A stretch of DNA of 64,000 nucleotides from a virus. The translations under genes and the position numbers were made by a program. The stretch spans positions 5,510 to 69,509 of the IMG/VR virus record IMGVR_UViG_3300030328_002066, one strand, 5' to 3'. This document shows positions 3,093 through 63,675 of this stretch, piece by piece. The notes under the pieces are model-generated. The model had not been told where the DNA came from and searched no databases. It was given only the letters and a program-made list of their open reading frames with translations. Numbering within the stretch: position 1 is the stretch's first letter; the number at the start of each line of letters is the position of its first letter.

Positions 3093-3165
<73 letters not shown>

Positions 3166-3168
3166 TTA

Positions 3169-3248: not shown

Positions 3249-3250
3249 TT

Positions 3251-3301: not shown

Positions 3302-3303
3302 TA

Positions 3304-4663: not shown

Positions 4664-4896
4664 TGGCTAAGCAACTTTATGATATTATTATTGACGTATG
4701 TGAAACTACTTGGTCTACTGCTGAAGTCGTTGTTGAAGCTGAAAGCATGGAAGAAGCTATTGCTGAGTTTAAAGAAGATCCTTGGAACCACGACTGGAGT
4801 AATTGGTCAATTCACGACAGCGAAGTTCAAGACTGGAGTGTTGATGAAGACGAAACCAAAAGAAGTAATCTTTGCCATCTTGACGAGGACGAATGA
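4663..4896 (+). CDS. Acidic hypothetical protein
   Basis: TAATG coupling; VEAESMEEA pattern common in small phage early proteins. Confidence 0.6.
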   Translation: MAKQLYDIIIDVCETTWSTAEVVVEAESMEEAIAEFKEDPWNHDWSNWSIHDSEVQDWSVDEDETKRSNLCHLDEDE

Positions 4897-4999: not shown

Positions 5000-5073
5000 G
5001 CCCTGATAGCTCAGCTGGATAGAGCAACGGTCTTCTAAACCGTAGGTCGCAGGTTCGAGTCCTGCTCGGGGTG
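5000..5073 (+). tRNA. tRNA-Arg(UCU)
   Basis: Acceptor GCCCTGA/TCGGGGT, D loop AGCTGGATA, anticodon arm ACGGT-CTTCTAA-ACCGT, T loop TTCGAGT. Confidence 0.93.
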
Positions 5074-5078
5074 CTTTT

Positions 5079-5164
5079 GGCTCTGTGGCGGAATTGGCAT
5101 ACGCATTAGACTTAAAATCTAACGCCCTTTAACGGGCTTGGGGGTTCGAGTCCCCCCGGAGCTA
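5079..5164 (+). tRNA. tRNA-Leu(UAA)
   Basis: Acceptor GGCTCTG/CGGAGCT, anticodon arm TTAGA-CTTAAAA-TCTAA, long variable arm GCCC/GGGC. Confidence 0.93.
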
Positions 5165-5167
5165 TTA

Positions 5168-8059: not shown

Positions 8060-8085
8060 GGGCGTTAACGCCTGAGTCTAAGAGA
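8060..8085 (+). promoter_or_regulatory. Putative phage RNAP promoter, copy 1
   Basis: GGGCGTTAACGCCTGAGTCTAAGAGA, identical to 21106-21131; intergenic, upstream of RNAP. Confidence 0.75.
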
Positions 8086-8115
8086 GACACACACCCTTTA
8101 ACTTTAAGGAGAGCT

Positions 8116-20398: not shown

Positions 20399-21137
20399 AG
20401 TACCCGACATAGCTATTTTAGATGCTGATATTATAGCGTACAAAGCAGCTTGTTGGGCTGAGTCAAATAATGCATCTCTTTCTGCTCTTTCAGATAGATT
20501 AGAATTTGATGTAAATTATTGGACTCCACCTGGTTTAAGTAGAAAGATACTTGCGTTTTCTTGTCCAAGAAAAGATAACTTTAGGAAAAAGATATGGCCT
20601 TCGTACAAAGACAATAGGAAAGGCAAACCAAGTCCTAAGTTTTTACCTATATGTAAAAAGATTCTGTGTTCTAATAACATAGCTACTGAACGTCCTACGT
20701 TAGAAGCAGATGATATTATCGGGTTGGGTATGGGGTCTATGAAAATGATAGGCGTTAGCTTAGACAAGGATCTTATGACTTGTCCTGGCTGGTTTTGGAA
20801 TCCAGAAAAGATGGACTTTCCAAAACTCATCTCAGTTGAGACTGCTGATTATTGGTTTCATAGACAATGGCTTATGGGGGATAGCACGGATAATATCCCA
20901 GGTATTCCAAAGATAGGTAAAGTAAAGTCTGAGAATCTTCTTAAAGATGTTTCTCCGGCGAACAGAACCCCCACTGTCCTGAAATTATATGAGGATAGAG
21001 GGCTTGATTTAGATTATTGTTTATCCCAAGCTCGTTGTGTTCGTATTCTACGTCATGGCGAATGGAATAAAGAAACCAAAGAAATATCTCTATGGTCTCC
21101 TAGCTGGGCGTTAACGCCTGAGTCTAAGAGAAACTAA
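20391..21137 (+). CDS. 5'-3' exonuclease (T7 gp6-like)
   Basis: DADIIAY, YKDNR, LEADD, DKDL, GDSTDNIPG; GGAG RBS before ATG 20391. Confidence 0.93.
   Translation: MNEVPDIAILDADIIAYKAACWAESNNASLSALSDRLEFDVNYWTPPGLSRKILAFSCPRKDNFRKKIWPSYKDNRKGKPSPKFLPICKKILCSNNIATERPTLEADDIIGLGMGSMKMIGVSLDKDLMTCPGWFWNPEKMDFPKLISVETADYWFHRQWLMGDSTDNIPGIPKIGKVKSENLLKDVSPANRTPTVLKLYEDRGLDLDYCLSQARCVRILRHGEWNKETKEISLWSPSWALTPESKRN
21106..21131 (+). promoter_or_regulatory. Putative phage RNAP promoter, copy 2
   Basis: 26/26 identical to 8060-8085; at the end of the exonuclease gene, upstream of dut. Confidence 0.75.
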
Positions 21138-41183: not shown

Positions 41184-41380
41184 ATTATAAAACACTTAAC
41201 GAAAAACTGTATTGGTCGTTAATGAATGATCTTGAAGACTCTGAGCGGAGAAATCCTCAGCTTTACAAAGTTGTATTAGACGTTCTTAAGGAAAATAGAG
41301 ATCAATTAGAGCTTACAGAAAGAAATATTGAGCAAGTTATTGAAGAGAAGATCGATCTTCCCTTTAAGTTTGGCTCTTAG
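41180..41380 (+). CDS. Terminase small subunit (T7 gp18-like)
   Basis: DLEDSERRNPQLY resembles the gp18 DL-x-D-x-ERR-x-PQLY motif; directly upstream of large subunit. Confidence 0.8.
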   Translation: MNYKTLNEKLYWSLMNDLEDSERRNPQLYKVVLDVLKENRDQLELTERNIEQVIEEKIDLPFKFGS

Positions 41381-41404
41381 GCGCTAACGCCTGAGTCTAA
41401 GAGA
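41379..41404 (+). promoter_or_regulatory. Putative phage RNAP promoter, copy 3
   Basis: AGGCGCTAACGCCTGAGTCTAAGAGA, 2 mismatches to copies 1 and 2. Confidence 0.72.
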
Positions 41405-41432
41405 GAGAATAATCAAATAGGAGAATACTATT

Positions 41433-43616: not shown

Positions 43617-44261
43617 ATGGGAGCTGTATTAGCCGTAGGCGGCGTAATGGCTGGCTTAGGTGCTTTAGGTGGTGCGTTGGGTGCTATTGGCGGTCAACAA
43701 AACGCGGAAGCTCAGTACTTAGCTGGAAAAATCGAAACCGAACGAAGCAATTTTCAAAACGCTTTAAAAAACGATAAACAAAATATGGCAATGGCTAGAG
43801 CAAACGCACAACGCCAGTGGAATAATGTTAAAATTGGGGAAACTGCGTTAAGTAACTATACAGAAAGTTTACGTAATAATAGAGAAGCGTTTCAAGCTAA
43901 TTCACAAAACTATGCTAGAAGCATGGTTCAAAACCATGCCGCTATGAAGGCTAGAGCAACCGGGAAAAACCTTCGCGGTGGAATGCAAAATAGATTAAAA
44001 GCGTTAGCTGATTCAAATTTTACAAAGCAACGAGGTGCTATGCGTATTCAGAAATTTAGAGCTGATACTAGTGCCGAAAACGTTTATCAAAACCAACTAG
44101 CAAAAAGAGATATGCTATCTAAAAGCGAGGCTAGTATTTATATGCCCGGTTCCACTGGTGTTGAACCTGGTTCTGGAACGCTAAATTTAATTGCGGGTAT
44201 TCTCGGTGGAGGAGCTAGCGGTTTTGCATCTGGTGTTTCAACAGGGAAGGCTTTAAGCTAA
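43617..44261 (+). CDS. Internal virion protein (T7 gp14-like)
   Basis: Gly/Ala hydrophobic termini, Gln/Asn-rich helical core; first of three genes of increasing size. Confidence 0.65.
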   Translation: MGAVLAVGGVMAGLGALGGALGAIGGQQNAEAQYLAGKIETERSNFQNALKNDKQNMAMARANAQRQWNNVKIGETALSNYTESLRNNREAFQANSQNYARSMVQNHAAMKARATGKNLRGGMQNRLKALADSNFTKQRGAMRIQKFRADTSAENVYQNQLAKRDMLSKSEASIYMPGSTGVEPGSGTLNLIAGILGGGASGFASGVSTGKALS

Positions 44262-44270
44262 GGAATAACT

Positions 44271-47200
44271 ATGCCAAGACGAGATATACCTAGTGCCAAA
44301 AGCACTGAAGGACGCGGACGACAAAAAGATGCCTATGGTTTTCTTCAAGAATACACAGAACCTGATTTAGGAAGTATTGCTCCTTTAGATCCGGTTTTAC
44401 AGAATAACCAAACAACAGGCGGAGAAGTCGTATTTGGCCGAGGAAGTAATCAAATAGGTGGAACAAATACTTCACAAGAATTAGCTAATTTGTTGTTTAC
44501 TGGCATAGAAGCAACTCAACAGTTTGCTGAAGGTTATAAAGAAATATCTGTTAAACACGATAGCGATGTTTTGGATGGTGCTCAAGAAGAGTGGGATCGA
44601 CGAAAGCTTCAAAAAGGAACTGAAGACTCTAACGGTATGTTGACAGAAGACGGTAAGCCTGTATGGTCTACTCTTACTCCAGAACAACGACTTTTAGAAG
44701 AAAGATCTTTTTTAAAAGAAACAAAGAAAAAGCTATGGCGAAGAGATAACAAACTTGCTTTAAGACAGGACATTGTAAAAAATAAAATGACCTTAAACCC
44801 CTTAAAGCTAGAAAGTAAAATTGAGGATATCCGTTTAGAACGTATGCGTCTTTTAGCCTCACCTCTTTCTGCTGATGAGCTTCAAAAAAGACTAGAAGAA
44901 CAAACTAAAATTTACCAAGACTGGGTTGACTCAAACGAATTTATTCAAAAGGATCCTGTTCTTAAAGCAACGGCTGATGCAGCTTTATACGGACTTCAAG
45001 AAAAGGATTTCTCTACTGCAGAAGCAGCTATGGATTCTTTTATGTCAGAGCAAAAACCTGTTTTAGAAGGTCTTCTTGTTAAATGGGAAGGACATCTTTT
45101 AGATCAAGGTATTGAATACGGTCCCGAGGAAGATCAGTTTCAGGGGTTTATTGAATTTGCAAAAACCCAACAAAATGCTACTGCGTTAGTAAGTGTTTTA
45201 GAAAGCAACGACGCTTTTTCTATGCGCTTTGGAGAACGCCTTGCTCCGATTTATACTCAATGGAGAGAATCGTTTGAAGAAACGGCTGCAGAAAACACAA
45301 GATTAACGCTTATTCAAAGGGGCGTAGAAGATTCTAGTTTATGGCTAGCTGACGTATACGATGAAAAAACAGGAAGTTTTAAAGCGCGCCCAGGAGAAGG
45401 TACAGTTTTTGACAACCCCAGCCGTTTTGCGTCTTTCAGCGTTCACTTAAGCCAAATACAAGAAAATAGTAAAAGTTCTCGATCAGCTAATATAAGCCAA
45501 GAATTTGGCGTTACTGTAACGACTTTTTCGCGTTTAGCGCAGGCTAGAGCTAAGCAATTATTTGTTCAAAACGGCGGGTCTATGGATGACGCTGTTCAAG
45601 CTGCTCTTGAAGACGTAACTAAAGCCCTTGAACATACCGCGGAATTAGGTGGTTTAAATTGGAATGAAGCTTCAATACGGTCTCGTGCAAACGCTATTGA
45701 AAAAGAGTTACGAAAGATTCATGCTCAAGACGGATTAAATATAGCAGAAAGCAATAACGGAGTAATAAGCAAGACAAACCCAGTAACAGAAGAACAGGAA
45801 GTTTCTTTTAATCTAAATTCTTCAGTAAATGTAGCTACTAATTACCCCAACGGTATTCCTCCAGAGATACAAGCTGTAATGCTCGACACATATCAATATG
45901 CAGTTGCGCAGCGCCTTACAACATATGCTTTAGAAAGCGAAGAAAACGGGGGTAGTTTAAATCGAATAGTAAGTAAAATACAAAATGTCGCGCCTGAGAA
46001 TTTAAATCGCCATCAGTTAAGTAGACGGCTTTATGACTCTATCGCTGAAGTCACGGGGGATTTAAATATTCCCGAAGAAAATCGAGCTGAGGAAGCTGCA
46101 AAAAGATTTATAGCAGGCCTCAGACCAAGTACGAAAGCTTTAGAAAGTACAGAAAACGGACAACGCTATTTAAAAACAATATCAGAAATTGAAGCTTATG
46201 TTCTCGAACACTTAACAACTTTTATGTCTGGGTTTTCTTTAGATCATGGTCTCCAGGTTTTACATTCGTTTGCCGATGCTTTTAATCAAGATACTAGGGA
46301 GGGTCAACAAAACGCTATAGGAGATCTTTCGGAATTTCCTTTAAACCTAGATTGGTTAAATAACTACGGGCTAACCGTTAGTGAAGATGGTGATGTAACT
46401 TTATCAAGTATCCCCGATGCAAGGATGCTTCAAAAAGAAGCGTTTTTAAGCAAAGATCCGGATAAAATTATAGCGGCTTTAGATCAAGTAGCTCCTATTC
46501 CTTCTATTGGTTTTACACCAGGTAGAATAACAAGACCAGAGGATATTGATCAGGCTGCTACCGTATTAACTGGAGCTTTAATTACAACCTCTGATGCTTT
46601 AGAGGCTTTGGGTATAAGAAGAAATAGCCGGACATATAAGCAGGTACTTGACATCCAGGTTGACAGACTTGTACCCCCTGTTTTAGAAGGTAATTCAAAC
46701 ATAGGTGATCAACGCACCTATAGAATGCGGTTAACAAGTCTTATTCACAAATTACACGAAATTCCTCAAATGATTGACGAGGGTGAAGTAAACCCAGAAT
46801 ATAAAGAGGTTGCTAGGAATCTTAGAGAATCATATGCTAAATACGCAGAAATAAGGGATTTTGAAGTACGAGCGGCGGTTGCTGGCCCGTTTGACTCTAG
46901 CGGGATAAATGATTGGGCAAGACAAAATACAAATAATCCTAACAGTCCTATGTCTACTTTTGATGAAGGATGGTGGGACGGTAATAAAACTAATTCGTTT
47001 ACAACCTATTTGCAAAAGATAGCCCCACAGGATTTTAGTGGGTTTTTACAAGATTTAAGAATAAACGCTATGGCTGGAGATGGAGCATCTTTTGCTAATA
47101 GCTATTACGCATCTATTGGCTATAATACACCTACTTTTGAAAACTTTATGGCTTTCTGTATGGAGAATAATTTAAGTCTACAGGCTAGAAAAGATGAGTC

Positions 47201-48515
47201 TGACAAGATAATTGGTTATGAGGCTGTTGATCGACCTAGAGTTTCTTCAGATCAGACTCGGATTTTTCAGGCTGCTCCAAACGGCCTTGTTTCAGCTTTT
47301 TCTCCTGAAGACGGTATTACAAGCCTTACGACTATGCAGTCTCTTCAAGGTATTTCTGATTCGTACAGAACTGGAGAATTAACCGAGCGAAACTATCAAG
47401 CCTTTAGCGCGCTTATTTATTTTCTTTCAAACACAAAGTCTACTGAAGGTCTTAAAGTAGACCGTCTTCTTCGTGATGATGAACTTGATTTTAGCGTTAG
47501 GCCTGACGATGATCGTAGTTTCAAGCTGCTTCGTTTATTTACGCCTCCTGAAGATATTAGAGAACAATCTCAAGTTCAAGGCCAGTGGAATGAAGAAAAC
47601 CAGGCTCAAATTGCAAATGATGCTTTAGCGCTTCTTAGGGGTTTATACGCTTCTCCTTACGACAGAGCGCGTAGAGATGGCAAAGATCCTAACGCTTATG
47701 GCTTAGACGGAAGTTATAAGATTTTTATTAACTTAGCTTCTTTACATAATCTAGAGGCTTATCTAAAAGACGCTACTACTTTATCAGATCCTCATAGTTT
47801 CTACGACGATCCAACATTGCAACTGCCTAATACTGAAATTTATAAAGATACTACTTTTAGAACTCCTAGCGGTCAACGTGGTTTGGTTAGAAGAACGCAA
47901 GTGGAGCGTTTAGACGGCGAGTTTGAAACCAAAGTTTCAACTGTAAGTTCAATGCCTGTTTCTTTACCTAGAAGCCTTGAAGTAGAAAATGCCGAAGACT
48001 TCACCGATGAAGAGGTTGTAAGGTTTAATAGGCGTGAATCTGAAATATTCAAGGCTAGTAAAACCATTGAAGAACTTGAGAAATCGTTAGAGACTAGTAT
48101 ACAGCAAGATACTAACTTTGGGGACTTTATAACCGAAGATTCGCCGAAAACTTTAAGGCTAAGAGAACAACTTAAGAACGCAAAAAGTATATTAGAGGGC
48201 TTAGAACAAACAACCCCTGAAGTTTTTAAGGCTAAAAAGTCTTTTAAAAGAGAGAGAGTGCTCACGTCAAAGGAGCAAGTGGAATGGAAGGCTCAGTCTT
48301 ATCCCAATACTATACTAGAAGATCCTAGATATATTTCGTTATCAGAAGAAAAACGAGAAAGAATAAAAACGTTATTAGAAATATATCAAATTCAAGATCG
48401 AAGCTTAGAGACGGGTAAAGTTGAATCTTTCAATATTCAAGACAGAATTGCAGATATGTTAGACCGTGAAGATGAAAAACCTAATTATGTTTTTAAAAAT
48501 GTGCAGTGGAAATAA
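44271..48515 (+). CDS. Large internal virion protein (gp15-like position)
   Basis: 1414-aa helical ORF between the gp14-like gene and the giant gene. Confidence 0.6.
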   Translation: MPRRDIPSAKSTEGRGRQKDAYGFLQEYTEPDLGSIAPLDPVLQNNQTTGGEVVFGRGSNQIGGTNTSQELANLLFTGIEATQQFAEGYKEISVKHDSDVLDGAQEEWDRRKLQKGTEDSNGMLTEDGKPVWSTLTPEQRLLEERSFLKETKKKLWRRDNKLALRQDIVKNKMTLNPLKLESKIEDIRLERMRLLASPLSADELQKRLEEQTKIYQDWVDSNEFIQKDPVLKATADAALYGLQEKDFSTAEAAMDSFMSEQKPVLEGLLVKWEGHLLDQGIEYGPEEDQFQGFIEFAKTQQNATALVSVLESNDAFSMRFGERLAPIYTQWRESFEETAAENTRLTLIQRGVEDSSLWLADVYDEKTGSFKARPGEGTVFDNPSRFASFSVHLSQIQENSKSSRSANISQEFGVTVTTFSRLAQARAKQLFVQNGGSMDDAVQAALEDVTKALEHTAELGGLNWNEASIRSRANAIEKELRKIHAQDGLNIAESNNGVISKTNPVTEEQEVSFNLNSSVNVATNYPNGIPPEIQAVMLDTYQYAVAQRLTTYALESEENGGSLNRIVSKIQNVAPENLNRHQLSRRLYDSIAEVTGDLNIPEENRAEEAAKRFIAGLRPSTKALESTENGQRYLKTISEIEAYVLEHLTTFMSGFSLDHGLQVLHSFADAFNQDTREGQQNAIGDLSEFPLNLDWLNNYGLTVSEDGDVTLSSIPDARMLQKEAFLSKDPDKIIAALDQVAPIPSIGFTPGRITRPEDIDQAATVLTGALITTSDALEALGIRRNSRTYKQVLDIQVDRLVPPVLEGNSNIGDQRTYRMRLTSLIHKLHEIPQMIDEGEVNPEYKEVARNLRESYAKYAEIRDFEVRAAVAGPFDSSGINDWARQNTNNPNSPMSTFDEGWWDGNKTNSFTTYLQKIAPQDFSGFLQDLRINAMAGDGASFANSYYASIGYNTPTFENFMAFCMENNLSLQARKDESDKIIGYEAVDRPRVSSDQTRIFQAAPNGLVSAFSPEDGITSLTTMQSLQGISDSYRTGELTERNYQAFSALIYFLSNTKSTEGLKVDRLLRDDELDFSVRPDDDRSFKLLRLFTPPEDIREQSQVQGQWNEENQAQIANDALALLRGLYASPYDRARRDGKDPNAYGLDGSYKIFINLASLHNLEAYLKDATTLSDPHSFYDDPTLQLPNTEIYKDTTFRTPSGQRGLVRRTQVERLDGEFETKVSTVSSMPVSLPRSLEVENAEDFTDEEVVRFNRRESEIFKASKTIEELEKSLETSIQQDTNFGDFITEDSPKTLRLREQLKNAKSILEGLEQTTPEVFKAKKSFKRERVLTSKEQVEWKAQSYPNTILEDPRYISLSEEKRERIKTLLEIYQIQDRSLETGKVESFNIQDRIADMLDREDEKPNYVFKNVQWK

Positions 48516-48541: not shown

Positions 48542-51500
48542 ATGACACAAGAAACTACCAATAATTTTTCTTTTAATCCAACAAATGTTAGACAAGAAGA
48601 TCTATTAAACTCTCAGACTTTCAGTAGATTTGTAAATAGAGATACTGCTTTAATTAAGTCTTTTTCTCAAATAGAAGAGCAAAAAAGATACGACGATTAC
48701 TTATTTAATAATTCAAATCGAATAGATCAGATTTTAAAAGACATTGAAACCGCGTCTTCTAAAAATGACGGCTTTTTAAAAGCTCTTTTTGACCGGAAGT
48801 TTGATCCAGATGAACCAGTTGTTGAGGGTATTAAAGCCACTGATAGCGGTTACATTAGAGACTGGATGAATGCCGGTGATCGTTCTAATTGGCAAGCTTA
48901 TAGCCAAAGAAGCGCAGCTACAGATCCAGGAACTTTGTTTGGATATTCTGGTAGAGCTGTTGATGCTAAGTTTGCTGGAAGCTATACAGCTATTGACGGA
49001 GAGTACGAAAAACTTTCTCCCGATGCAAAGGCTTTAATTGATCGTTCTAAAAGCTATGCTGAGTCGCAAGGGCTTCGTTTAAATAGAAACAATTGGGGAG
49101 GTCTTGAGGGTGTTGGTGAAACAGTTTCAGGGATTTACTCATTCTTCGCTGCTCCTTGGTCTGAATCAGCTGAAGGTTTAGGCGCAAGAAAATTAAATGA
49201 AGGTACAGAATTATGGTATCGTTTGTACGAGGGAGATCCAGAGTGGAAGGCAAATTCTAAGGCTAGAAAAGAAATTGCTAATGCTATTGTAAACGGAGAT
49301 CAGAAATTCGTATTTGAGTTAATTGGGTTGACAGAAAAAGATATCGAAGACGCTCCGTCTTTAACAGCAGCTATGGAAAGAGTAAACCAAAGAGTCTTAG
49401 CTTTTCAAGAAGGACAAGCAATGGCTCATGCTGGCACAACGGAGTTAGTTTTTAGAGATACTTGGGAAATGCTTAAAGCTATGCCTTCTGATCCTGATTC
49501 TGTTTTTGAATTAGGAGCTGCTGTAGCTTTTGGTGTAGCTACGGGTGGTATTAGCCTTGCGGCATATGGCACAAGATTAACACAACGGGCTACTGCTAGA
49601 GCAGCTGGACGAGTCTTGTTTAACGGCCCAGTTTTACGAAGAGCCGCAAAAACAGCAGAGAATTGGAGGCGGTTATCTGAAGCAGCCTCAACAACGGCTG
49701 GTTGGTTAGAATCTGCAGCTAAAGCTTCTAACGTTACACGAAAGTTTTTAACTCCTACTACGTGGTCAGAAGAAATTCTTGTTCCTACTGTTAAACAAGC
49801 TTGGTGGATTTCTAGAGAAGCCTCTAAAGAAACCGCTGAAGCTTTGGCAATTAAAGAACTAAGTAGAGGAAGCGTTTTTGGAATTGCCCTTCGTAATTCT
49901 TTGTTTGACATGGATGCTCCAGGTGGTCTTACTGGACTAGCTGCTAACATGGCAGATGGAGCGTGGAGTGAGCTTTTAGCCTACGCTGCTACTAGAGACG
50001 AAGAAGCAGACTATGCTCGTTTTATTTACGGAGATGACGTTAACCCAGAAGATTATGCCTTTAGTCTCCACGGTGCTTTACAGTCTATGGGCTATGGTGC
50101 TATGTACGGAGCAATTCTTGGTGGAGCTATTCGAACCGCTACAGGTATCTTAACTTCTCCTGGTAGTTATGCAAAGGATGATTTTAAAGTAGGTGATATT
50201 AAAGACTTAGTTAAAAACATCAGGCAAAAAAGAACAGATCGAAAAAACGGTGTATTAGCTAGTACTATGTATGATTTAGCTAGCGGCGGTATTAGATCTA
50301 AACGCGTTATTCTAGAAAACGTAAAATCTAGTGCTGTTTCTAGAGGTTTTATACACGCTGATGATGCTGAGGCTATGAGCCGATTAGAGGTTGTTGTTGA
50401 TACAGGTATTGCTAATGGTGTTGATATGGCTAAGGCCGTTAAAGAATCCGGAGGCAATCCTGTTGAGTTAAATAAAATTATACAGAGAGAATCGAAAACA
50501 ACTAAAGCTCAAAGTAAACGAGACGCACAAAGAAGAGCAAATGAGCATTCGCCCGAAAAACGCCGTACAAGTACTAAAGCAGCAGTGGCTTTAAATACAG
50601 CTGTTGTTGAAAAAGCTGCCGATAATGGTACGGGGACTGAAGCAGTAAATCGTGGAGAAGTAGTTCGTGAGCTTATAGATGACCCTAATACAGATCCAGA
50701 AATAAAAGCTACTCTTATTGAAATAGAAGAGGGAGTCAAAGAGGCTTCTAATTTTCAAGTATATGAGACTATGCGGCAAATTGATGAAGCTATTGAAGGC
50801 GGTCTTAGTGAGGTAGATGATGAGTTACAAGACGATCTAATAAACACAGTTGCTGTAAACTCAGGTCTTAATCCTATGGCCGAAGGCACTGTTACGACAG
50901 AAGATACTGGCAGAGCTATAGAAAAGGAGGTAGCTAGAAGACAAGAGGAATATGAAAGTCAGCTAGCTGAAACTCAAGCAAGACAAGAACAGGTTAATAA
51001 AGAAGCCTTAGAAGAAGAAAGACAAAAGCTTTTAGTAGATGGTCGAAAAAAGGGTGGCTATAGTTTAGCTGCGCTAAAGAAAATGGCTGAAGGGTTAGGG
51101 ATTACTTTCGGTAAAAACGGAGATCTTCCTGCAAAGCCTGGACGAGAAGCTCTTGTAAACGCTATTATGGAACGACGATCCGGTGAGGCTACTACTGTAG
51201 GCGCAGCTGTTGTTCCTCCTCAGCCTCCTCAGGCTGTAAAACCCGAAGACGTTACTAAGGAAGCACGCCAGGAAAGTCAACGTCGTAGACTACAGCAAAA
51301 TAACGGTTCTGAAGAGATACTTAAAAGTATTACTGATTCTACCGATGTACTTATGGTTACAGAGGGGACTCTTACTGAGGCTGTTACAATACAAGCACAA
51401 GTAGGAGTTGAACGAGGAATCACTTCTTTTATTATGCAACAAGGTGATAGGGCTGCTGATGCTCGAAACAAAGCGAGTGTTTATAGTCCTATCCAAATGG

Positions 51501-54500
51501 CTAAAGTTACTAAAGAGCGTTATGATTCTATCAAAGAAGCAGGACTAAAACTTCCTCCAGAAACTCGAAAAACTGTAGCTAAGAAAATTAAAGCTTTAAG
51601 AGATAAAGAGGGTCTTACTAAAAAAGACATAGAAAAAGCTGTTTATAGAGAATATGGTATTAACGTAGGCGTTAACTTTGAGATTTCAGATAAAAAAGCT
51701 GAGGTTGATGAATCTGGAAAAGATATTATTCCGGAGAAAGTCGAAGTTGATGGGGAAGAAAAAGCTTACCTGACAAAAGAAGAAGTCCTCAGTCTTTACG
51801 AACAACTTACTTGGATTGCTGCTATTAGCGATGCTTTTGAAAGCGATGCTTTAGGAGATTGGTCTCCTACCGAAACTCAAAAGTTTTGGTTAGGTGATCC
51901 TACTACCCAAAATAGAGTAGCTCGTCAAGCTTTAGCTTCTATTATGGCTATTGAATCTAAATATGCTAAAGAGGGTAAAGACGCTCAATACGTGACTTAT
52001 AGAGAATTAATAGAGGCTGGCTGGCCTATTGGACATGAAAACCTTCTTCACTCGGCTTTTGGCGAAGCTGAGGCGCTCGAATCTAACAATGCTGGGAACT
52101 CTTTATTTCATATTGTTCTTCTTAGATCAATGGTTGAAGAAAGAGTTGCGCGATCAGCAGAAGATAGCGAGTTTACGTCTGCTTATAGACAAGAACAACA
52201 AGCTCGTATTGATCGGATTGAAGAAGGCTTAGAGGGCGATGTCCCTGATAGAATCCGCAATAAACTAATTAAATATCGCTCTCAAGCAATGATTGAACTA
52301 ACTGTTGTAAACTTTATTGCAAATGCTGGAGTAAACACTTCAGTTACTCAGTCTAGAGTAAACGAGGTTATTAATAGCCCCGCTTATGGTAATAAAGATA
52401 CCTCTTTTGCTGATAGAAAAGCAAAGTATATGCGGAGACAGGAAACTAAGTTTGTTGAAGGTGTAATGCACGCTCTAAGCAGACTTCCTGACGATAGTCC
52501 CGCTTTTCATACCATGCTTAAGAAAATGGGTCTTCAAGAATTTATTAGAAGGAAGTTAATCTTTACTCCAGATAAAGATCTAAGACCAAACCAAAAAGCC
52601 CAGGCAATTAGAGAACGTAAAGAATTAGCAGAAGGGATTGCGAGATGGGCTGTAAGCCAGTCTCCAGATTTGTTTGGTAATGTAACTGACGCTAATACGT
52701 TTGGTGGTTTATCTAAATTATGGGATGGTTCTTTAGATGCTGTAGATGGCTTTACCGCCGGTAACGCTCTTATTGAAGCCGTCTTTAATTTTAGAAACTT
52801 TGGGACAAGTAAAGGGGATTCTCTTGCTGCAGGAGTTAATACAAAAGAAGATGAACATGGTTATCTTGGTCAATTAAGTAATCGTGGCTTTATGTTAACT
52901 TTTGAACGCCACGTTCAAGATAAAACTAATGAGCATATTCTTTTTGACACTAACCCTGAAACAGGAGAGCAAAAAAGAAAATTTTATACTGAAGCAGATG
53001 TAGAAGAACGTTTAGCTTACTACGAAAGAATTGAAAGTCTAATAAATCTTGAGCAGTGGGATAAACTTTCAGAGTTTGTTCAGAATACCCCCTACGCCGC
53101 TGATCTACGAAGAGGTATTGCTCCTCAACAGTTAATCACTGAATTGCAAGGAGAGATTCAAAATTTCCGCGACAAGTACGAAAGTCGCGTTGAATGGGCT
53201 CGTATAACCCCTCCTTCTGTTATTCATACGTTACATGACCAGGCTTTAAGCATGAGAAACTCTTCGGCAGCTTACCATGTATTTGGTAGCCTTCCTGAAA
53301 CTCCCGAGCTAAAGCCTTTAAAAGCGATGATAAACGCAAAGGGGGATACTGGACTAAAGACAGGAACCTTTAATGCTGGTTCTTTTAAAGATGCTTGGGC
53401 TGTTAAGTCAAGCCGCATCTGGGGAACGGCTTCTGGTATGGCTAGTTTTGCTAGAGCTTCTGGACGACATCACTTAGCTGCTCTTATGTCTTCTTTAGAA
53501 GATAATCCTATTCAACTGCTAAGTGCTTTACACGAAGCTAAAGATGGCACAGTAGTTGTTGATAATGGTAAAGTAAAGGTTACTATTGATAATGATGAAG
53601 ATGCTTCTGCTCAAGCTGTTGAAGTTGCTCAGTCTATCTATGACGACTTCCATGCTGGTGTAGTTCATTTGTTTCTGGAGAGGAACAAAACATCTTTAGA
53701 GACTTGGGAAAAAGCATACAAAGAAGCTAAGCTTGACTACGACGGTATTAAAGGCAACTACAATAGGGCTGATCCAGAACATGCTAAAATCTATGCTGTT
53801 TATAAAAACGCACAAGAAAAAAGAAACCACCACAAAGCTATATCTAAGGTTAAGATAACTACTAAGCCAGCTTCAAAAGATATCAAAGATAGGACTGGAC
53901 AAGATGTAGTTATTACTGAAGTAGACTATAGCAAAGTCCCTATTAATAAAAAAACCGGCAAACCTGAGATTGGGCCTAAAGATATTCCTGGTTTAAACCA
54001 AGCGGTTTTTAGAGATTTTCTTGCTCAAGAGTTAAACACAATTAAAACTGTGGGTGGAGGAGAACAAGTTGCTTCCGCTTTGGCTCAATACCAAGATAAA
54101 TTCGTAGCTGAAAAAGGAGCTGATAACTATTCTTTAGTGGGTGTAGCTACCTTAGAAAATGAAAATTTAACTCATAGAGGATGGACTATTTTATCTCAAG
54201 TAGCTGAAATAGCTTCTCTTAAAGAAGGCCAAGGCTTTAAAGATTTAAGTAGTCCTATTGCTTCTTGGTTCCGGAGTGATGTTTTTAAACCACCAGTGAT
54301 GACAAAGGTATACTCTGCTGGTAAAAAGGCTTTTAGAAACAATACTATTAAAGTATTAAACGAATTGGATCTAGAAGACATTTCCGATTTAGCTTTAAGA
54401 GAAGAGTTTAAAAAGCTTAGGGATGAGGGCGCTGTAACTGAAATGGCTAATGAACTTGTGTTTGTTCTTGTAGGAGATAAGGATACTAAAGGAACGATTG

Positions 54501-57500
54501 AAACTGTTTTAGGGCTTCCTAATACAGACGTTCTTATCGAACAGTTAAACGCTCGTATGGCTTATGATAGCTTAGTTGTGTATGTTCCTGACGGACAAGG
54601 CGGAGAAAAACGAGTTGATTTAGAAGATGTCCTTGATAGAAAAATTACTCAAGAAGAGCTAACACAGCTTCGTAAATATAAAGAAGTGGGCGATAGTAAA
54701 TTTACACCTGCTATTCCTGCAGATGATGTAGTTCAAGATGCTGATGTAGATCAGGATATTTATGATCGTAGGACTCAATCTACTGATAAAGATATGCTAC
54801 GAGCTATTAGAACAATAGGAGAACGTGTCTTTGGCGGTATTGCTGATGATAGTTCTTTTCCTATGCTTGGTCTTTGGGTCGCTCGCCTAGAAATGGGACA
54901 ACGCAGCGGCAACATAACTCAAAAAGCTAAAGACGCGGCTATTCGTCGTATGTTTGAGTTTATCCAAGATGCTAAAGCAACTAGTGCTCAAAAAGGAATT
55001 CCTTTTGATGAAGCTCTTCGTCGAATAGTAAAACCCGTTAGTTCTTACTTACAGAGCGTTGAACATCTAAACCGAACTTCGGTGGTTGCTAATAATCCAA
55101 TTATTATGGATTACATGGAAGATATGAGTCTAACGGTTGAAGACCTAGATTCTATTTCTAGGGCTCAGCTAGGAGAAAACGCTTTACCGATGTATGCCCG
55201 TAACAGGGTATCTACTGGTCGTTCATTTAAGTTTACAGATACTTCTGCTATGGGTAGACCTATGAGCGGAGAAAGTAGCACAGAAGAAACTTTGGGAATC
55301 GGAGACGAACAAGTAGGAACTCTTGTTATAGGCGATGCGTTTGCTAGTCTTATGGAAGGCCAGGAAACCGAAACAGACGCTCTTAGGTCCACTGTTCTTC
55401 AAGACATGGAAATGGAGTTAGGTGGTATTCTTAAACCCCTTGGTTTTACTGATCCAAACGAAAAAGACTTTGTTGAAACGGCTCGTAAAAATTCTTACGA
55501 TCCAGAAAAAAAGAAAAGGTCTAAAAACCGCAACGCTCGCTTAAAAGAAATTGACGGCGAAATTGCAGCTTTGAAGAAGAAAGAAAGAGAAGAAGGTTCT
55601 GAGTTAACTGAAGAAGAAATTTATAGAATGGGGCGTTTAACGGAGTTAAGAAAAGTTGTTATTAAAATAGATGATGACGGAAAAACAACAGAGCAAGCGG
55701 ATCGGACTTTAATCCCTGTTTCAGTTAGTCCTCAGAATCGCCTAACAACCCCAGACGTTTCTAATGTTTCTATGCCTAACTCAGCTGTTCAACCAACCGC
55801 TTTGGGCGTACCTTCTTTAAGGGCTTTACGCACTAAACTTCATAGCCGTCAATTGCAAGACGCTGAGGCAGCTAAGAAAAATCTTCAATCAGAGCAAAGA
55901 TCTACCTTTAGTATTCAAGAGATGGCAACAGCTTCGCCAATTTCTCCTGCTTATACTGAAGCTGTACGCGCTGAAAGTTCTCAAAACCCTGTTGAATTAT
56001 CAGATGCTGAATACATTGCTGGTATTCGTACCGAAGATCAAAGAAGTAAAGAAGAAATTAAGCAGGAAGTAGAAGGAGAAAACTTATCGTCTAAAGAGCA
56101 TTTTGGCGATAGTTTAACTTCTGAAGAAAGAATAGCTGGTGTTCGTTCTTTACGTCTAGCTCATCGTTTAGCAGAAACTCGTCGAAGAGAAAAACCAAGA
56201 GGAGAAACAAAGTCTGATAGAAAAGCTGCACAAAGAGCACGAATGAGACAGCATAGTATGGATGCTCTTAATCTTACTCACGGAGCTATCTCTGTTTCTG
56301 CAGCAGACGCTGGAAAAAGGAAACACGATCTAGACAGAGGAGAAGTAGCCCCAGGTCGTAGATCTTCTACTAGGTTTAAACAAATAGTAGATAAAGACGG
56401 TAAGCCTAAAGTTGTCCGTGTTGAAGGAGAACAAGAAGGCGATTACCTTAAAACTTTTGGGGAGATGTTAGTTAATTATGCATTTAGAAATCAATTAACT
56501 GGCATGGCCGGTCTTATGGTAGGTCCTGTTGATGCTACGGGTGTTCTTTTAAGAAGGCCTGATATGAGACCTGGAAAAGATCCTAGAAAAGCTATGGAAG
56601 AAATTGTACCTAAGTTAACGAGCAGAGGTCCTACTTCGGTGTTCTTCTTAGACTTTATGCTTATGGGCGGAGCTAATAAAGAGTTTACTATGAAAGCTCT
56701 TGCTGCTATGTATATGGATAGAACGAAGTTAGCTCCTGATAACGCTGAAGTTGCAGCTATGTCTCCTACTGAGTTTGTAGCGTGGGTTAATGCAGATGGG
56801 TTTTTAAAAAATTATACTGAATGGAACAACGTTAAATTCGGTTTAAAAAACGAAACTGTTCAGTCTATTCCAGATGCAGACGCTAAGTCTAAAATAATTA
56901 CTAGAGATTTAGCCGAAGAAAAACAAAAGTTCTGGGATGATTTCGAAGACTATGAAGACGGAAAAGATGTGACTTCGGATAATGATTTTCAAACCGTGGT
57001 GTCTGAATTTTACGACTCTATGTTTGAGGAAATGGCAACAGAGTTTCCTGAACTACCTCGTTTAAAACTAGACGAAGATACTAAAATGTTCTTTTACGGT
57101 ATCTATGAAATGTTAGAGAACGAGCCTCAGTATAGAGAGTTTCTTTTTCAAGTTTTAGGTCTTGATGCTGACGATCCTAATATTACTAATTTAGACGTAG
57201 CAGCTGGCTTTACTTTAGCTTTAGATGATGTAGATAATAACTTTTTTGTTCCTTTGTTAGAAAAAATCAAAAACGGCCCAGATGAAGTAATTAGACCTAC
57301 TCAATTCGGCGCTAGGTATAATAGTATGGAAGTTAGCGATCCTACTTTACCTTCCGGAGCACGTCCTACGTTTACCGCAATGGAACAGCTCCATATATTA
57401 AACCTTAGTCGTAATAAAGAGATTGTTCATAAGCTTTTAGTAGCTTCTATGTTTGGCGTTGATATAGAACTAGACTTAGAAATGAGCAGCAAGCTCCGAG

Positions 57501-60500
57501 AAAAGAGTGATCGATTTGATACTTCGTTTGCTCCTGCTCATGGTTTTGCTAGAACACCCTTAACAGAACGAAACGCTGAACAATTAAGAGTTGAAGGGGA
57601 TACTAATGCCGGATGGAAACCAGAAGCTTTAGGAGCTGTCTTATGGCATGACATGCGAGATACTATCGATCCAGATAGTGTTTTTGGAAAAGCTAAGGGT
57701 ACAGACATAAACTCTGCACAAAAAGGTAAACTTGGTTTAGCTTACTTTTTATTAAACGCAGGGCTTGTAGATAAAAACGGAACTGTTCATATTGAAGCTG
57801 AGAAGTTTTTAAGCGGGCATAGTTTTGATGTAAGTAAAGAAGACATCTCAAAGATTGTTCCAGATTTAGCTAAAGAAATGGCTAAGAAACAAGAACAGCC
57901 TGACTTAGAAAGTACTTCTAGTCAATTAGAAGACAATGCTGTTATTGACGATGACTTTGATCTACCAACAGGTACTGTATCTAGATCAGATACCACAAAG
58001 GCAGATGATGACTTTGATCTACCAACAGGTACTGTATCTAGAAAAGCTACTAAAAAGGCAGATGATGACTTCGATCTACCAACAGGTACTGTATCTAGAA
58101 AAGCTACTAAAAAGGCGGATGATAAATCAACTGATTCTAAAGTTGATCCCAATTACAAAGAACATGATCTTGACCGGCTATATAAAACTATGGATGAGCT
58201 GAACGAGATATTAGATCAAGCTGAAAACGAATTTTCTGAGATTGGAGCTAAGTTCGTCGATCTTGAAGGCCCTGCCGGGCCGTCTAGACTTGTAAACTTT
58301 TCTGCTCGTAATATGGTCGCAGTAGAAGTTAATGGAGAAGTCTTTGTTTTTTACCAGTCTTCTGGGTTGGCAGGCAAAGAAAAAGTACCACGCGGCGTAT
58401 GGTATGTTATTGGCGGAATAAGGCCTGATGGTAGTTGGATAGCTAAAACCTCAGATGGAATGATGAGTAACTATGGTTCCCCTCAACTTAAGAAAATTGG
58501 AGATATTCTTACTAGAGCTACAATGAAAGACGGGGAAGTAACTAATATTAAAACAACCAAAAATAACATTAAAGACCAAATATATCTTAAAACTGCGGAA
58601 GATGATGCTAAGTTTGCTAAACAGGTAAATAATTTAATAGGTATTGATGAATCTGCTGATTGGGAGTCTGTTTGGGAATCTAATCTTAATGAAAAAGTTA
58701 AGCGGATAGAAACTGAACCCGAGGCGGATCTTGACGATGACTTCGATCTACCAACAGGTACTGTATCTAGACAACCGTCTTCCACAGTTGTAGCAGGAGA
58801 TCCTGAAACAGGTTATGACGGATCTGTAAAACCAGTTACTCCAGAAGAACGTAACGAAGCTGCTCGTAATGTTACTAAGCGTCTTCATATTACAAGAACA
58901 ACGCAAACAAATACTCCTGAAGGCGATGCTTTCTTATTAGCTTTACAGAGTAGTGTTTTTAGGGGACAACCTGGTGCTCAAAACGCAGCTACCTTATTTA
59001 AGCTTTTGACTGGAAGAGATAAAGGAGTCGATAAACCAGTTTCTGACTTTGAAGCTATGCAGTTAATTCAAACAGCTTTAGTAGACTCTGAGCTAGGGTT
59101 CAGTCTTTTTGGAGGAAATCTTAGATTTAACCCAGACGGCGAAATTAGTACTGACATTCAAGTTGAAAAGAGCGTTACAAACCAACAACGAATGACTAAA
59201 CTAATACGTACTATGAATGGTGTTAACGAAATTTCTGAATTACTAGGAAAGGGTCAAGCAAGCGCTGCTCTTGCTTTTGTCTTGCACGAATTAAGTGATT
59301 CTAATTTATATGTAGCAGATCGAGGCGAGGCTAGAGACTTATCTAAAATATCGACTTCTCGTCAACGGACTGGTAATACAAAAGCAATGAGAAACACGTT
59401 CTTACGAGATTTTGTAACTGTAGAAGGTATTTCAAAGTTTGAAGAACTAGTAGATGCTTTAGGTATTCGTATTCCAAGAATAGATAAGTTTATTTCTGAG
59501 TTAAAACGAATTCAGAAAACTTACAACATTACTTTAGAAAACCTGGTTAAAGCTCAGCCTCAAAATGTTTTTATTCTAGAATTAGAACAAAACGAACCTG
59601 AGTTTTTAGAGTTAGTTAGAGAAGCTTATGCTTGGACTATGACTGGCGTTCTTTTAACAAAGGCTGGTAAAGTAGACCTAGATAAATACGTTTCTCATGA
59701 AAGCGGTTTTAAAGATATGGTTACTTTAGCTGCTACTAGAATCCGTAATCTTCTTAAGGATATACAGGAGTATACAAGAGAGTTTGGCGTTGCTAGAAAA
59801 CCTGATAAAGATCCTAAACAAGTAAGGATTAGCTCTTGGGGTTGGTTAAACAAAGAAGATGAGACTTTCTTTAATACTCAATGGAAAACTATTACAGCTA
59901 TGTCTGCAAGAGCAGATGAAGCTCATACCATTAGTTCCAAGGGTCTTTTAAATATTACTAAGGGAGTTGGTCGAGACGGGACTCTTAAAACCGTTTACGC
60001 TGGAGGTGAGCTTGGTCCTGCCGATAGTGCGACAGCCTTAGAAATGCGTTTAGCCGATGTAGAAAGAAGACTTCGAGAAGAAACAAGTACTATAGAAAAA
60101 CATAGACTTTTAGCTGAACGAACTTCTTTACAAGAAAAACAAAGGATTATTAGATCTAGCGTAGAAGCTCCTTCTAGGCAAGCGCGTATTGCAGAGCTAA
60201 GAGCTAAAGGTCTTGATCCCGAGTTAGGTATTCCTATTAAAGAAAACCTAACTGACGAAGAGTGGTTAGAGTTACGTGATTATGAAGCAGAGACAGCCTT
60301 AAAAGCTTTTAGAGCTACTCAGTCTATGGGAGTAGGTTCTAAAGTTAGTTCGGCTGCAAGTCTTATGACTTTTGCTAGAGGTTTATCCACTCTTCCTTCG
60401 TCACCTTTTGACGATATTCGTGGTCTAACTGTTGCTGGTAATCCTAATGCAATTAATGCAACAACATCCCTTAATGGCTGGGTTCCTCAGCAATTCTTAG

Positions 60501-63500
60501 CTGATAAGATGTCTAGAGATTTACAAAGGTTCTATAATAGAGCTAGTAGATACTTTAAGATTTTTAATAAATTCGCTAAAGCGTCTGATCCAGCTACGCA
60601 AAATGTTGGTTTAGATATGCAGCGTCGTGTTCATAAATCTTTAAACAATCCGAACGAATCTGCTAGACAAAGGGCTATTTCTAATTTAGATCTAAGTCCT
60701 TTAAAGCTATCTTCTAAAGAAGAAGGGCGCTTTCGGGATGACTTACTGGCAATGGGTGAATTGGTTTTTAATCCAGAGTCTGGATTGATCCACCGTATTG
60801 TAGAACAATCTTATAGAGCAGGTGTTTTATCTAAAACGCAAAGAGACAAGATTAGAAAAAGCCCCAGACTTCCTTATTTACTTAGGCAAGAGCATGTTAG
60901 TAAAGAAGTTGGCGTAGACTCCTTACGGGAAAAACTTGTTAACCGGGCCTTTAAAGAGTTAAAAGATCGTTACGATGGCTCTGCTAAAGGCGCGGAAAGA
61001 GGAGGACCAGTCTTTGTTAATAGAGATGCTTTAGTTGGGATTGGAAGCATTATGACTGAAGAAGTCGGCACAGATGCCGCTCGTCTTCAGTTTAATGAAA
61101 TGCCAGAGCATCTTCAAAACGCGTTATTAGAGTTAGCTGAAAAATATCACGAAAAGAAACCCGAAGATTATTCTACTTGGGAACCGGCTGATAAAGCTGC
61201 CTGGGCTAGTAAGCTCTATGCTGAAGAGTTGGTTCTTCCTGTAAAACTTAGAACTGAAGAAACGCTTTTAACCCCGGATAATCCTATTCTTATTCACTAC
61301 AGAAAAAGCCTTGATACTAGAGAAGAGGCTTCTTGGAATGGAGAACGAGGAGAACGGGGAGTTTTAACTGGACGTTCTAAAGCTTCGGCTATGTATGATA
61401 AATGGGCTAACTCTAGAGATGGACGCGATGCTGTTCGTGTACCAGAAGATTTAGGTTTACTGGAAAACTTTGCCTTAAAAGAGGCTATTGTTCTAAAAAA
61501 CTCTGGTCACTTAAATCCAGACCATAGTATGTTTGGTCGCTGGGAAGACTTCTTTTCTGGAAATGCTAGAAAAGCCGGTCGTGAAGATGGGTCTGCTGAT
61601 CCGGATATTTCTTTGTATCAAAGCGTAGACCTTCTTCAGATTATACCATCTTTGTTTAAAGGCCGAACTGGCGATTCTTATGGCACAGTAGTACAACAAA
61701 ACGCTCTTGGTTTACAGGGGATGGATTTCTTAGATCTTGTCTACTACTTAAAAGATAAGTTAAAAGATCCTGGAGCCTTGTTTTCAGTAAACGGGGAAAT
61801 GCGTCAGCTTACTTCTTTAGAACGTAAGCGTATGGGAAATGAGCTTACTGTTATTGAAGAGCAGAATGACACTTTGTTTTTAAGAAAACCTAGAACTTTA
61901 GACGAAACAGACGACGCACTAGAAGGTATCTTCCACGATCTTTCAACTGTTGGTATTGGTATTGCTTCGGCAGGTAACTGGACTACGTCTGTTTTAGCTG
62001 AGGTTACTAGTGGTTTTGCTAGAACTATTGCTAATATGATTCGAGGAGACTTACAAGCTCCTCTAGATTATATTAAAGGATTTAGCCCAGCTAAAAGACA
62101 AAGGGTTTTAGAATCTGTTAATGCTCATGAATTTTCTTTGCATAAAATAGGTCAAATCTCCCAGTTAGGTGATATTGGTTTTGATGCAGTATCAGATGGT
62201 AATATTTCCAGCGAATCTATTTCTCCGCTGCGTCGTTTAGGCAGAGGAATTAGAAGTGTTTCTACTTACGGGTTCAGTGGTATTAACACGTATACTAGAT
62301 ATGTTTCTAGTGTTCAAGGTATTAGACAGATCCAAAAAATGGTACACAAAGATCGTTTTGTGGAACTGGGAGAATTATTTGAAGAGTTGCCTGAAGAGCC
62401 TACAAGAAAAGATATTTCAGCCGCTGCTAGAAAAGCAGGGGTTCCTGATGACGTAGCAGCTCAGCTATTTTACGGAGGCGCTAATAACCTCTCTATGCTG
62501 ATGAAAGTACAAGATGCTGTTAAGGCTTATTTAAAAGAAGATGGTTTTGATTTTGATGGGTTTCATACAGAAATGTTAGCTCATGAAAATACAGCCGATG
62601 CCGCAGATGGGCAAGCTGCTGTAGGCCATGTTTTAGGAATGGTTAATGCGTTTAATAGAAGGAATAACTTAGATCCAACTTTTGGCAATCGACAAGTTCC
62701 TCGAAATATGATGGAACGGTTGTTAGCTTCTTTAGGACAATATCCTATTCTTGCTTATTCTCGTATGCGTCAGCATATGTGGCAGGGTGGTATTACTGGA
62801 GTAGCTTCATTTATAGTTCCTTTAATTATGGGTGAAATTACATATACAACCATTATGCAGGCAGCTAAGGGCGAAGATCCTGAGGAGATTCTAGAACGCT
62901 GGGAAAACGATCCCGAAGGGGCTCTATTAAAAGTGTTAGAAAATCTTCCTGTATTTGGACGACTTCAAACCTTGCAGCCAATGCTTATGGGACTATTTGT
63001 AAAATTTGTAAATAGCTTAGATCAAGACTTTGCGGCGGGATATAAAGATCAGACTCTACGATACAACATGGTATCTTTGCCTGGTCTAGAAATGTTTATC
63101 TCATCGTTATCAGCTTTAGACCGAGCTACTGAGCAGATCTATAATGGAGACTATGAAAAAGGTGTAGCTAACTTAGGACGGGTCGCCCCGGTTCCTTTTA
63201 AACCAGCTATGAGAATTTTCTTAAATTACCTTTTCCAAAGCGATCCTTTGTTACGAGATTCTAACGGAGGAAGTACATATAATCCTACTAGGCATCAGAC
63301 AAAGACGACTCCTATGAAGGTTTGGTCTGAATCTGAGGAAGGTATAAAAGCTCGTACTAGAAAGGCGGAGGATTCTCCTGCTGGTCCTGATTTAGTTCAA
63401 ACGGACCCAATGCCCGTAAAAGCTCAAGGCCCTGACAAGGCTTCTGAGGGGGTTACAACGGATCCTGTTGTTAAGTCTCCTCCAGAACAGCCTAAGGTTC

Positions 63501-63634: not shown

Positions 63635-63659
63635 GGGCATTAACGCCTTAGTCTAAGAG
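63635..63659 (+). promoter_or_regulatory. Putative phage RNAP promoter, copy 4 (right-end, phiOR-like)
   Basis: GGGCATTAACGCCTTAGTCTAAGAG, 2 mismatches to consensus; no ORF downstream. Confidence 0.65.
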
Positions 63660-63675
63660 GGGAACAAAGTTACTA

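Follow-up and report, generated by a model that had tools for sequence, protein, structure and literature searches.

Does a T7-like phage that already encodes an RNA polymerase (RNAP) carry a further one, concealed in a giant protein that may travel in the virion? The question is raised by a stretch of 64,000 nucleotides (nt), hereafter the window, which comprises bases 5510-69509 of the 69,509-base virus record IMGVR_UViG_3300030328_002066, rated complete, and which includes a giant open reading frame (ORF) of 5014 amino acids (aa). The initial annotation described six segments of this ORF in the same order as in the phage's canonical 811-aa T7-like RNAP and proposed a virion-packaged second RNAP domain whose motif A had lost its catalytic Asp. 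The ORF and all six segments are present, namely SNRGF (aa 1446), VEERLAY (1487), FARASGRHHLAALM (1636), QSIYDDF (1697), RSDVFKPPVMTKVYSAG (1911-1927) and LVIGDAF (2261), as are their partner strings in the 811-aa RNAP. However, the motif B block, RSDVFKPPVMTKVYSAG, is the only one of the six with statistical support from sequence, while the other five lie at noise level or are not conserved. A conserved RNAP-type motif B in a family of giant proteins of marine T7-like phages is thus real at the level of sequence, but this does not prove a polymerase domain, whether complete or active. The surrounding core (aa ~1290-2330) may be a very diverged module of a single-subunit (T7/N4-type) RNAP with a working nucleotide or polymerase site, a reading given a probability of roughly 45%; RNAP ancestry of the module, working or dead, is somewhat likelier to be right than wrong. 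The features of the giant gene to which the argument refers are as follows:

48542-63586 (+): giant ORF, 5014 aa (P0001), the genome's last large gene
52409-55531 (+): conserved core, aa 1290-2330, holding every candidate polymerase motif
53231-53239 (+): L-H-D, aa 1564-1566, an invariant strand-Asp block lying upstream
53447-53488 (+): FARASGRHHLAALM, aa 1636, the motif A of the initial annotation; not a conserved motif
53591-53620 (+): NDEDASAQAV, aa 1684-1693, with N..DAS.QA invariant; possible motif A with Asp 1687
53654-53971 (+): clade-specific helical insertion, aa ~1705-1810, not in distant homologues
54122-54133 (+): D-N-Y-S, aa 1861-1864, with D.YS invariant, ~50 aa ahead of motif B; possible equivalent of the RNAP "DLY" helix
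54272-54322 (+): motif B-like block RSDVFKPPVMTKVYSAG, aa 1911-1927, of the form R-x4-K-PP-VMT-x2-Y-x-AG
54914-55084 (+): helical segment after motif B, aa 2125-2181, aligned to fingers helices of both RNAP profiles
55211-55240 (+): STGRSFKFTD, aa 2224-2233, invariant G/x-R...D block with R2227 and D2233 invariant
55322-55342 (+): LVIGDAF, aa 2261-2267, hydrophobic strand with invariant Asp 2265; candidate motif C

Motif B in a family of giant proteins

The giant protein belongs to a small family of 4192-5382 aa whose members share as little as 19-27% identity and whose host phages are uncultured marine T7-like podoviruses of ~58-70 kb. A word-index search recovered a fragment of the giant protein itself and four homologues that are 43-47% identical to it; a profile search of 1.84e9 representatives found 22 proteins at E≤1e-3, including eight further giants of 4192-5243 aa; and a metagenome scan added seven loci, four of them non-redundant. 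A later search from alignment A2 at longer lengths returned three members only, all already known. Contigs bearing giant homologues and contigs bearing T7-like RNAP homologues share three lengths (66853, 65558 and 58547), which at most hints that the two genes occur together. The core had no tblastn match in 50,697 deposited phage records, and IMG/VR scans with protein patterns and with a degenerate FKPPVMT..Y.AG DNA pattern found no relatives, although records near the window's own were possibly left out of them. No description of the family was found in a literature search. The giant ORF is collinear with eight distant giant proteins over nearly its whole length; the proteins are therefore homologous almost end to end, and homology delimits no domain.

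Alignments A1-A3 were built on the core. Conservation in the giant protein peaks at aa 1401-1700 and 2201-2300, and in a 5-sequence alignment the bins aa 1601-1700, 2201-2300 and 4701-4800 were tied as the most conserved. The invariant positions of a 13-sequence alignment are LHD (1564-1566), N..DAS.QA (1684-1692), D.YS (1861-1864), FKPPVMT..Y.AG (1915-1927), R2227/D2233 and D2265. Distant homologues skip profile positions 411-496, which match the helical insertion.

Within the motif B block, F1915, K1916, P1918, V, M, T1921, Y1924, A1926 and G1927 are invariant across 13 giant homologues (12/12 rows of A2), and R1911 is conserved at ≥90%. K1916 and Y1924, together with the downstream D2265, are kept in 19 of 19 full rows, and R1911 and G1927 in 18 of the 19. 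In T7 RNAP, the motif B residues R, K, Y and G contact the incoming nucleoside triphosphate (NTP). The K-x7-Y spacing of the block is that of both N4 and T7-like motif B, with K-x7-Y-x2-G exact, while the gap between R and K is one residue longer than in the R-x3-K of single-subunit RNAPs. The strong motif B of the initial annotation therefore stands, being invariant in homologues, keeping R/K/Y/G and being recognized as RNAP by three independent profile sets.

For an unbiased scan, the 14 most conserved stretches of the family were compared, at two lengths, with T7-like and N4-like RNAP profiles (41 of the 120 homologues listed and 11 sequences, respectively). The motif B stretch landed on motif B with z 6.1/6.4 for the T7-like and 5.1/5.6 for the N4-like profile, and the remaining stretches scored z 2.7-4.3 at scattered places; over all scans of this kind, the z of motif B ranged from 5.1 to 7.0. 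Profile-profile alignment with hhalign gave the same answer. The giant family against the N4-like virion RNAP (vRNAP) profile produced a single top match on N4 motif B (R666...K670...Y678), with P 0.003 from 13 sequences, 0.01 from A3, 8.9e-4 from 29 sequences and 0.012 from 12 full-length rows, compared with P 0.24-0.81 in four reversed controls. With the 29-sequence alignment, the match covers 158 columns and reaches the next fingers helices. The T7-like profile had motif B as its top match with the 13-sequence alignment only (P 0.078), and a 484-aa RNAP from the same genome, used as a bridging profile, again met motif B only (P 0.39 alone, 0.03 merged). As a positive control, the T7-like and N4-like profiles aligned to each other with a probability of 92% (P 6e-7), and the 390 aligned columns span TxxGR and motifs A, B and C. 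When the N4 alignment was recomputed by maximum accuracy (MAC) with a low mact, it grew to 718 columns but carried no confidence, and this version was discarded.

Whole-library scans, which are independent of these profiles, also returned RNAP most often. The 26 members of A3 were each compared with Pfam and PHROGs: PF00940 was matched by five (best E 9.9e-4) and PHROG 414, "RNA polymerase", by 12 (best 3.3e-4), with the next families matched by at most two members in either scan. RNAP-matching members were identified individually in 2/5 cases for Pfam and 3/12 for PHROG. The matches in P0015 and L014 cover motif B, while those in P0009 (Pfam positions 121-192 of 448) and P0017 (PHROG positions 539-626 of 816) run from the D.Y motif through motif B. 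PF00940 was not listed in whole-length Pfam scans of P0010, P0011, P0012 and P0013. Among the N4-specific domains considered (PF21867, PF21894 and PF21624), PF21894 was matched by one of the 26 members (E 0.089). Among the language-model neighbours of the window's core, PF00940 clusters stand ninth and 17th; for the relative L017 (= P0013, ~25% identical), the named neighbours include PF00940 at ranks 1, 9 and 28 and N4 vRNAP domains at rank 8 (0.86). These neighbours are taken as leads only, because all scores lie between 0.85 and 0.88. Taken by sequence, a fingers element consisting of the D.Y helix, motif B (the O-helix) and the following helix is recognizable in the core.

Candidate motifs flanking motif B and predicted structure

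The D.YS motif preceding motif B is invariant in A2 (D572, Y574 and S575), and targeted stretches around it rank 1-8 on the RNAP "DLY" motif, near noise. On the other side, the helical segment aa 2125-2181 aligned collinearly with motif B in restricted sub-alignments, with hhalign P 0.016 on T7-like positions 611-668 and 0.06 on N4 ~776-860. Restricted N-terminal and C-terminal sub-alignments gave no hhalign support to motifs A and C (P 0.043-0.13).

Candidates for the two catalytic Asp residues come from elsewhere in the core. N..DAS.QA is kept in 12 of 12 A2 rows and also in P0021, and precedes motif B by 122-224 aa. A 16-column stretch at D1687 ranked 1 of 797 on T7-like motif A; other sizes ranked 4-32, and ranks against N4 were 62-239. 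Downstream, D2265 is preceded by a strand at aa 2261-2265 in the second AlphaFold model described below; short stretches at LVIGDAF ranked first on motif C of both RNAP profiles, and wider ones ranked 9-51. In distant homologues, D1687 lies 122-151 aa before R1911, counted from the column preceding D1687, and D2265 lies 278-354 aa after it, the N4 distances being 107 and 285. The likeness of D1687 and D2265 to motifs A and C is nevertheless at noise level in sequence comparison. The LHD block was also top-scoring against RNAP motif C, as good a match as LVIGDAF, so that matches of the "strand plus Asp" kind are unspecific. STGRSFKFTD had the DFRGR motif as its top T7-like match (z 3.9) and is treated as noise because its position after motif B is the wrong order for RNAP; it is the sole GR block resembling T/DxxGR, and no such motif was found upstream of motif A.

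The remaining segments of the initial annotation fared unevenly. The reading of FARASGRHHL as motif A with Phe in place of the catalytic Asp does not hold, since the block is misaligned and unconserved: distant homologues have IASLAGAKRM, AASYYGMNQL and similar strings at FARASGRHHLAALM, and a scan of the block had no RNAP motif A among its top matches. The Arg residues of SNRGF and of VEERLAY are likewise not conserved in distant homologues. In QSIYDDF, I1699 and D1702 are invariant but the remaining residues are not, and LVIGDAF keeps its invariant Asp as a candidate motif C although the match is low in specificity.

Two AlphaFold2 models of the core were made. The first, from five sequences, had a mean predicted local distance difference test (pLDDT) score of 54.1 and a predicted template modelling (pTM) score of 0.28, too poor for use; the second, from 26 sequences, reached 68.8 and 0.39. 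The second model is mainly helical, with short strands at aa ~2179-2183, 2217-2220, 2227-2230 and 2261-2265, and long helices of pLDDT 82-93 in the insertion; its confidence is low from LHD to PGSFKDAW, at DEDAS and before D2265. Of the proposed RNAP domain, an RNAP-type motif B was found, but a palm and fingers fold was not found by AlphaFold and Foldseek with either model. At this confidence, the models neither show nor exclude a polymerase fold.

Readings of the conserved core

Descent from a single-subunit RNAP with a retained nucleotide site is favoured because R/K/Y/G are invariant at the exact K-x7-Y spacing, and because the motif has the RNAP form and was repeatedly recognized by independent family models. 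D1687 and D2265, at N4-like spacing, would be the natural candidates for a catalytic pair. If so, the module would still bind NTPs, with these two residues serving as the catalytic pair on either side of motif B; the giant protein would travel in the capsid and be ejected in the manner of T7 gp16 or N4 gp50; and the module would transcribe, or at least track along, the first 13 kb of the genome, where tRNAs, the 484-aa RNAP gene and the 811-aa RNAP gene lie without a promoter-like element. Transcription of the left end would help to draw in the DNA and to set the programme in motion, as with the N4 vRNAP. Packaging of the giant protein is suggested by gene order, size, helical character and the N4 precedent.

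Several results weigh against a polymerase module of this kind. The significant sequence evidence comprises one fingers region of ~100 residues, and the unbiased scan did not recover motifs A, C and T/DxxGR. The hhalign probability of the family against N4 was just 4-23%, compared with 92% in the positive control, and the best PF00940 member scored 18.5 bits, below the Pfam cut-off of 22. The giant protein itself had no RNAP match at E≤1 in Pfam or PHROGs, and PDB sequence searches (with a 5-sequence profile and, phmmer-type, with both protein halves) gave no match at E≤10. The long-gap chaining score was reached by 0-1 of 100 column-permuted profiles and by 7-42 of 100 block-shuffled ones; collinearity adds little, because the score does not beat block-shuffled profiles. 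In the models, the putative active-site segments have pLDDT below 50-55, and compact homologues lack strands before DAS, which is odd for motif A. Foldseek found no match at E≤0.001 in PDB with either model or in BFVD with the second, and there was no RNAP among the matches listed, the top ones being long helical proteins. As for packaging, its basis is gene position and size only.

Much of this would also be expected if the giant protein held no polymerase at all and were a long helical ejection or scaffold-like protein, in which the motif B block served an unrelated function, for example contact with DNA, portal or membrane, and resembled RNAP by chance or convergence. This reading retains a considerable chance of being right, though below even. 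It accords with Foldseek matches that are long helical proteins only, with one short significant region, with the absence of any match at a curated threshold and with collinearity that is not significant against block shuffles. It accords also with the scan, in which conserved stretches matched various RNAP motifs at z 3-4 without a consistent order (DGFTAG to N4 motif A, STGRSF to DFRGR, NDEDAS to the HSIDAAH block), so that high-information columns evidently match each other easily. A chance likeness, however, accounts poorly for RNAP as the most recurrent family in two independent whole-library scans (5/26 and 12/26), for a match that falls on functional residues at exact K-x7-Y-x2-G spacing and, in several homologues, also takes in the D.Y motif and the helix after motif B, and for RNAP clusters neighbouring two mutually 25% identical sequences in the language model.

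The version proposed by the initial annotation, in which an RNAP-derived but non-catalytic domain acts as a DNA clamp, ratchet or promoter-binding factor at genome entry, is improbable. In its favour, an RNAP-like fingers element is present without significant matches to motifs A, C and T/DxxGR, and the genome encodes two canonical RNAPs, so that a third catalytic one is not obviously needed. The Asp-to-Phe argument, however, rests on the unconserved block, and R/K/Y/G with two flanking Asp residues strictly invariant at 19-27% identity are what would be expected of a working nucleotide site rather than of a relic. Family A DNA polymerases have a motif A of the form D-[YA]-S-Q, which DAS.Q resembles. 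It is nevertheless very improbable that the module is a different Pol A superfamily enzyme (a DNA polymerase or one that extends primers): at E≤1 the 26 members had Pfam matches to PF00940 but to no DNA polymerase family, K-x2-VMT-x2-Y-G is the RNAP form of motif B, and a separate gene of the phage encodes a family A DNA polymerase.

The strongest form of the diverged RNAP module, a third, active and extremely diverged single-subunit RNAP injected within an ejection protein and heading a three-polymerase cascade independent of host RNAP, is judged rather unlikely. Were it true, the injected enzyme would transcribe the tRNAs, the 484-aa mini-RNAP and the 811-aa RNAP, and would constitute a new virion RNAP lineage beside the N4 and crAss types. 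Even the more modest claim of a diverged RNAP module in a T7-like ejection protein would, if correct, link the entry strategies of T7 and N4, imply that polymerase cargo in internal virion proteins is commoner than family models detect, and provide a test case for how far single-subunit RNAPs can diverge with the nucleotide site retained.

Genome setting and comparison with known systems

By gene content (Pfam and PHROGs on the window's proteins), the phage is a T7-like podovirus. Its genes include the 811-aa RNAP, primase-helicase, family A DNA polymerase and ribonucleotide reductase, and the structural set comprises portal, scaffold, capsid, tail tube A, nozzle, fibre and large terminase. 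The loci that bear on the giant gene and on early transcription are listed below in window coordinates unless stated otherwise:

genome 2933-4387 (+), 5' of the window: second canonical RNAP gene, 484 aa (L029), PF00940 6.3e-21
3093-3377 and 5000-5165 (+): five tRNA genes of the early region (Lys-TTT, Ile-TAT, Met-CAT, Arg-TCT, Leu-TAA)
8116-10551 (+): canonical T7-like RNAP, 811 aa, PF00940 1.3e-77, PHROG 414 1e-156
14886-16580: family A DNA polymerase gene
8061-8086, 21107-21132, 41380-41405 and 63636-63661 (+): 26-nt element GGCGTTAACGCCTGAGTCTAAGAGAG with a palindromic GGCGTTAACGCC head
43617-44261: 214-aa ORF, candidate gp15/gp14-like partner by order and size only
44271-48515 (+): 1414-aa ORF adjoining the giant ORF upstream, candidate gp15/gp14-like partner by order and size only

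The 811-aa RNAP is ≤29% identical to the deposited-phage RNAPs among the matches listed. It is not the only non-virion RNAP, as had been assumed, since the 484-aa gene lies 5' of the window; its product is 24% identical to the 811-aa RNAP (E 1e-14) and is compact, lacking the N-terminal domain but with motifs A (DATCSGFQH), DLY, B (RQFAKVIVMLTGYGSG) and C (VVHDAF) intact. No relatives of it were found in IMG/VR. BLASTP of aa 1301-2500 of the giant protein against the phage's own 811-aa RNAP found nothing (best E 1.4).

The 26-nt element is probably a phage promoter or an RNA-processing site. Its four copies, all on the + strand, compare with none expected by chance. Three lie upstream of the 811-aa RNAP gene (by 30 nt), ORF 21171 and the terminase gene, and the fourth closely follows the giant gene. 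The leftmost 13.5 kb of the genome (genome 1-5600 included) has no copy; the early region, without this promoter-like element, therefore needs host RNAP or an injected enzyme, which fits the virion-polymerase idea and is no proof of it.

Downstream of the terminase gene, ORFs of 154, 214 and 1414 aa precede the 5014-aa ORF. The "gp16 position" of the initial annotation is therefore apt in a loose sense only, as this is not the T7 gene order. Pfam and PHROGs assigned no family to the 1414-aa and 214-aa ORFs, and the latter has a hydrophobic segment at its N-terminus. Between the nozzle and fibre genes lies an ORF of 649 aa (34984-36933, +) that faintly resembles GDSL lipases (E 0.0084, under the cut-off).

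Apart from its core, the giant protein contains four copies of the peptide repeat DDDFDLPTGTVSR(K/Q), at 57947-58123 and 58733-58795 (aa ~3136-3194 and 3398-3418), which may be a docking or processing motif. A weak Pfam item, DUF7432, lies at aa ~1658-1702 (E 4e-4, below its cut-off). Sub-threshold Pfam matches in two homologues, to Rho_N (P0010, aa 879-912, E 1.8e-4) and Sigma70_r3 (P0013, aa 2592-2627, E 1e-3), hint at nucleic-acid-binding modules.

To our knowledge, virion-delivered RNAPs occur in N4-like and crAss-like phages only. With the T7-like RNAPs (PF00940, PHROG 414), the core shares a D.Y helix and motif B that family models recognize in homologues. Unlike these enzymes, the giant protein has an extra residue between R and K and no fold match was found, and the family-model matches are below the curated cut-off, with none for the window's own copy.

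T7 gp16, also known as internal virion protein D, has roughly a quarter of the giant protein's size. Like gp16, the giant protein is the largest of three successive ORFs, rising here from 214 through 1414 to 5014 aa, and it is mostly helical in the models; unlike that of gp16, its gene is placed after the terminase gene. Four segments of the protein had no match to internal-virion-protein families in Pfam and PHROGs, the podovirus-only hidden Markov model approach of PMC4819975 not having been tried, and a transglycosylase domain was not found in it.

The closest precedent is N4 gp50 of the Schitoviridae. One source places the N4 vRNAP within a homologue of T7 internal virion protein D, a gp16-like ejection protein (PMC4819975), and another describes gp50 as a beads-on-a-string ejection protein (PMC13434306). 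Like the protein considered here, gp50 is a giant (3022-3523 aa in 10 sequences), and its polymerase module, like the putative one here, lies in mid-protein; it gave the best profile-profile match, and its flanking Asp residues are similarly spaced from motif B. Its motif B reads R-x3-K-N-P-x5-Y-G-S-G, compared with R-x4-K-P-P-x5-Y-S-A-G in the giant protein. When the full-length families were compared in 7 x 4 blocks, the core matched the N4 RNAP domain (P 0.012), and aa ~3579-3740 (59276-59761) matched the start of the gp50 C-terminal domain (~2225-2345) over 120 columns with P 0.0029, these being the second lowest and the lowest P of the 28 pairs, the latter match centred on a HEL motif that is HELVH in N4. 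The two matches are collinear, and neither is significant after 28 tests (best reversed control 0.071). The differences are also plain: the giant protein is ~1500 aa longer, motifs A, C and TxxGR are not alignable, the hhalign probability is at most 23%, N4-specific Pfam domains appear in a single member, and the present phage, unlike N4, combines a full-length T7-like RNAP with replication and structural genes of the T7 type.

The giant virion RNAP of crAss-like phages, of the phi14:2 gp66 type, belongs to the two-barrel, double-psi beta-barrel fold class. This is a different class from that of the single-subunit enzymes, and nothing in the giant protein points there, no specific test having been made. 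The likeness to the crAss-like enzyme is one of concept, that of a giant ejected protein with a cryptic polymerase that sequence searches miss.

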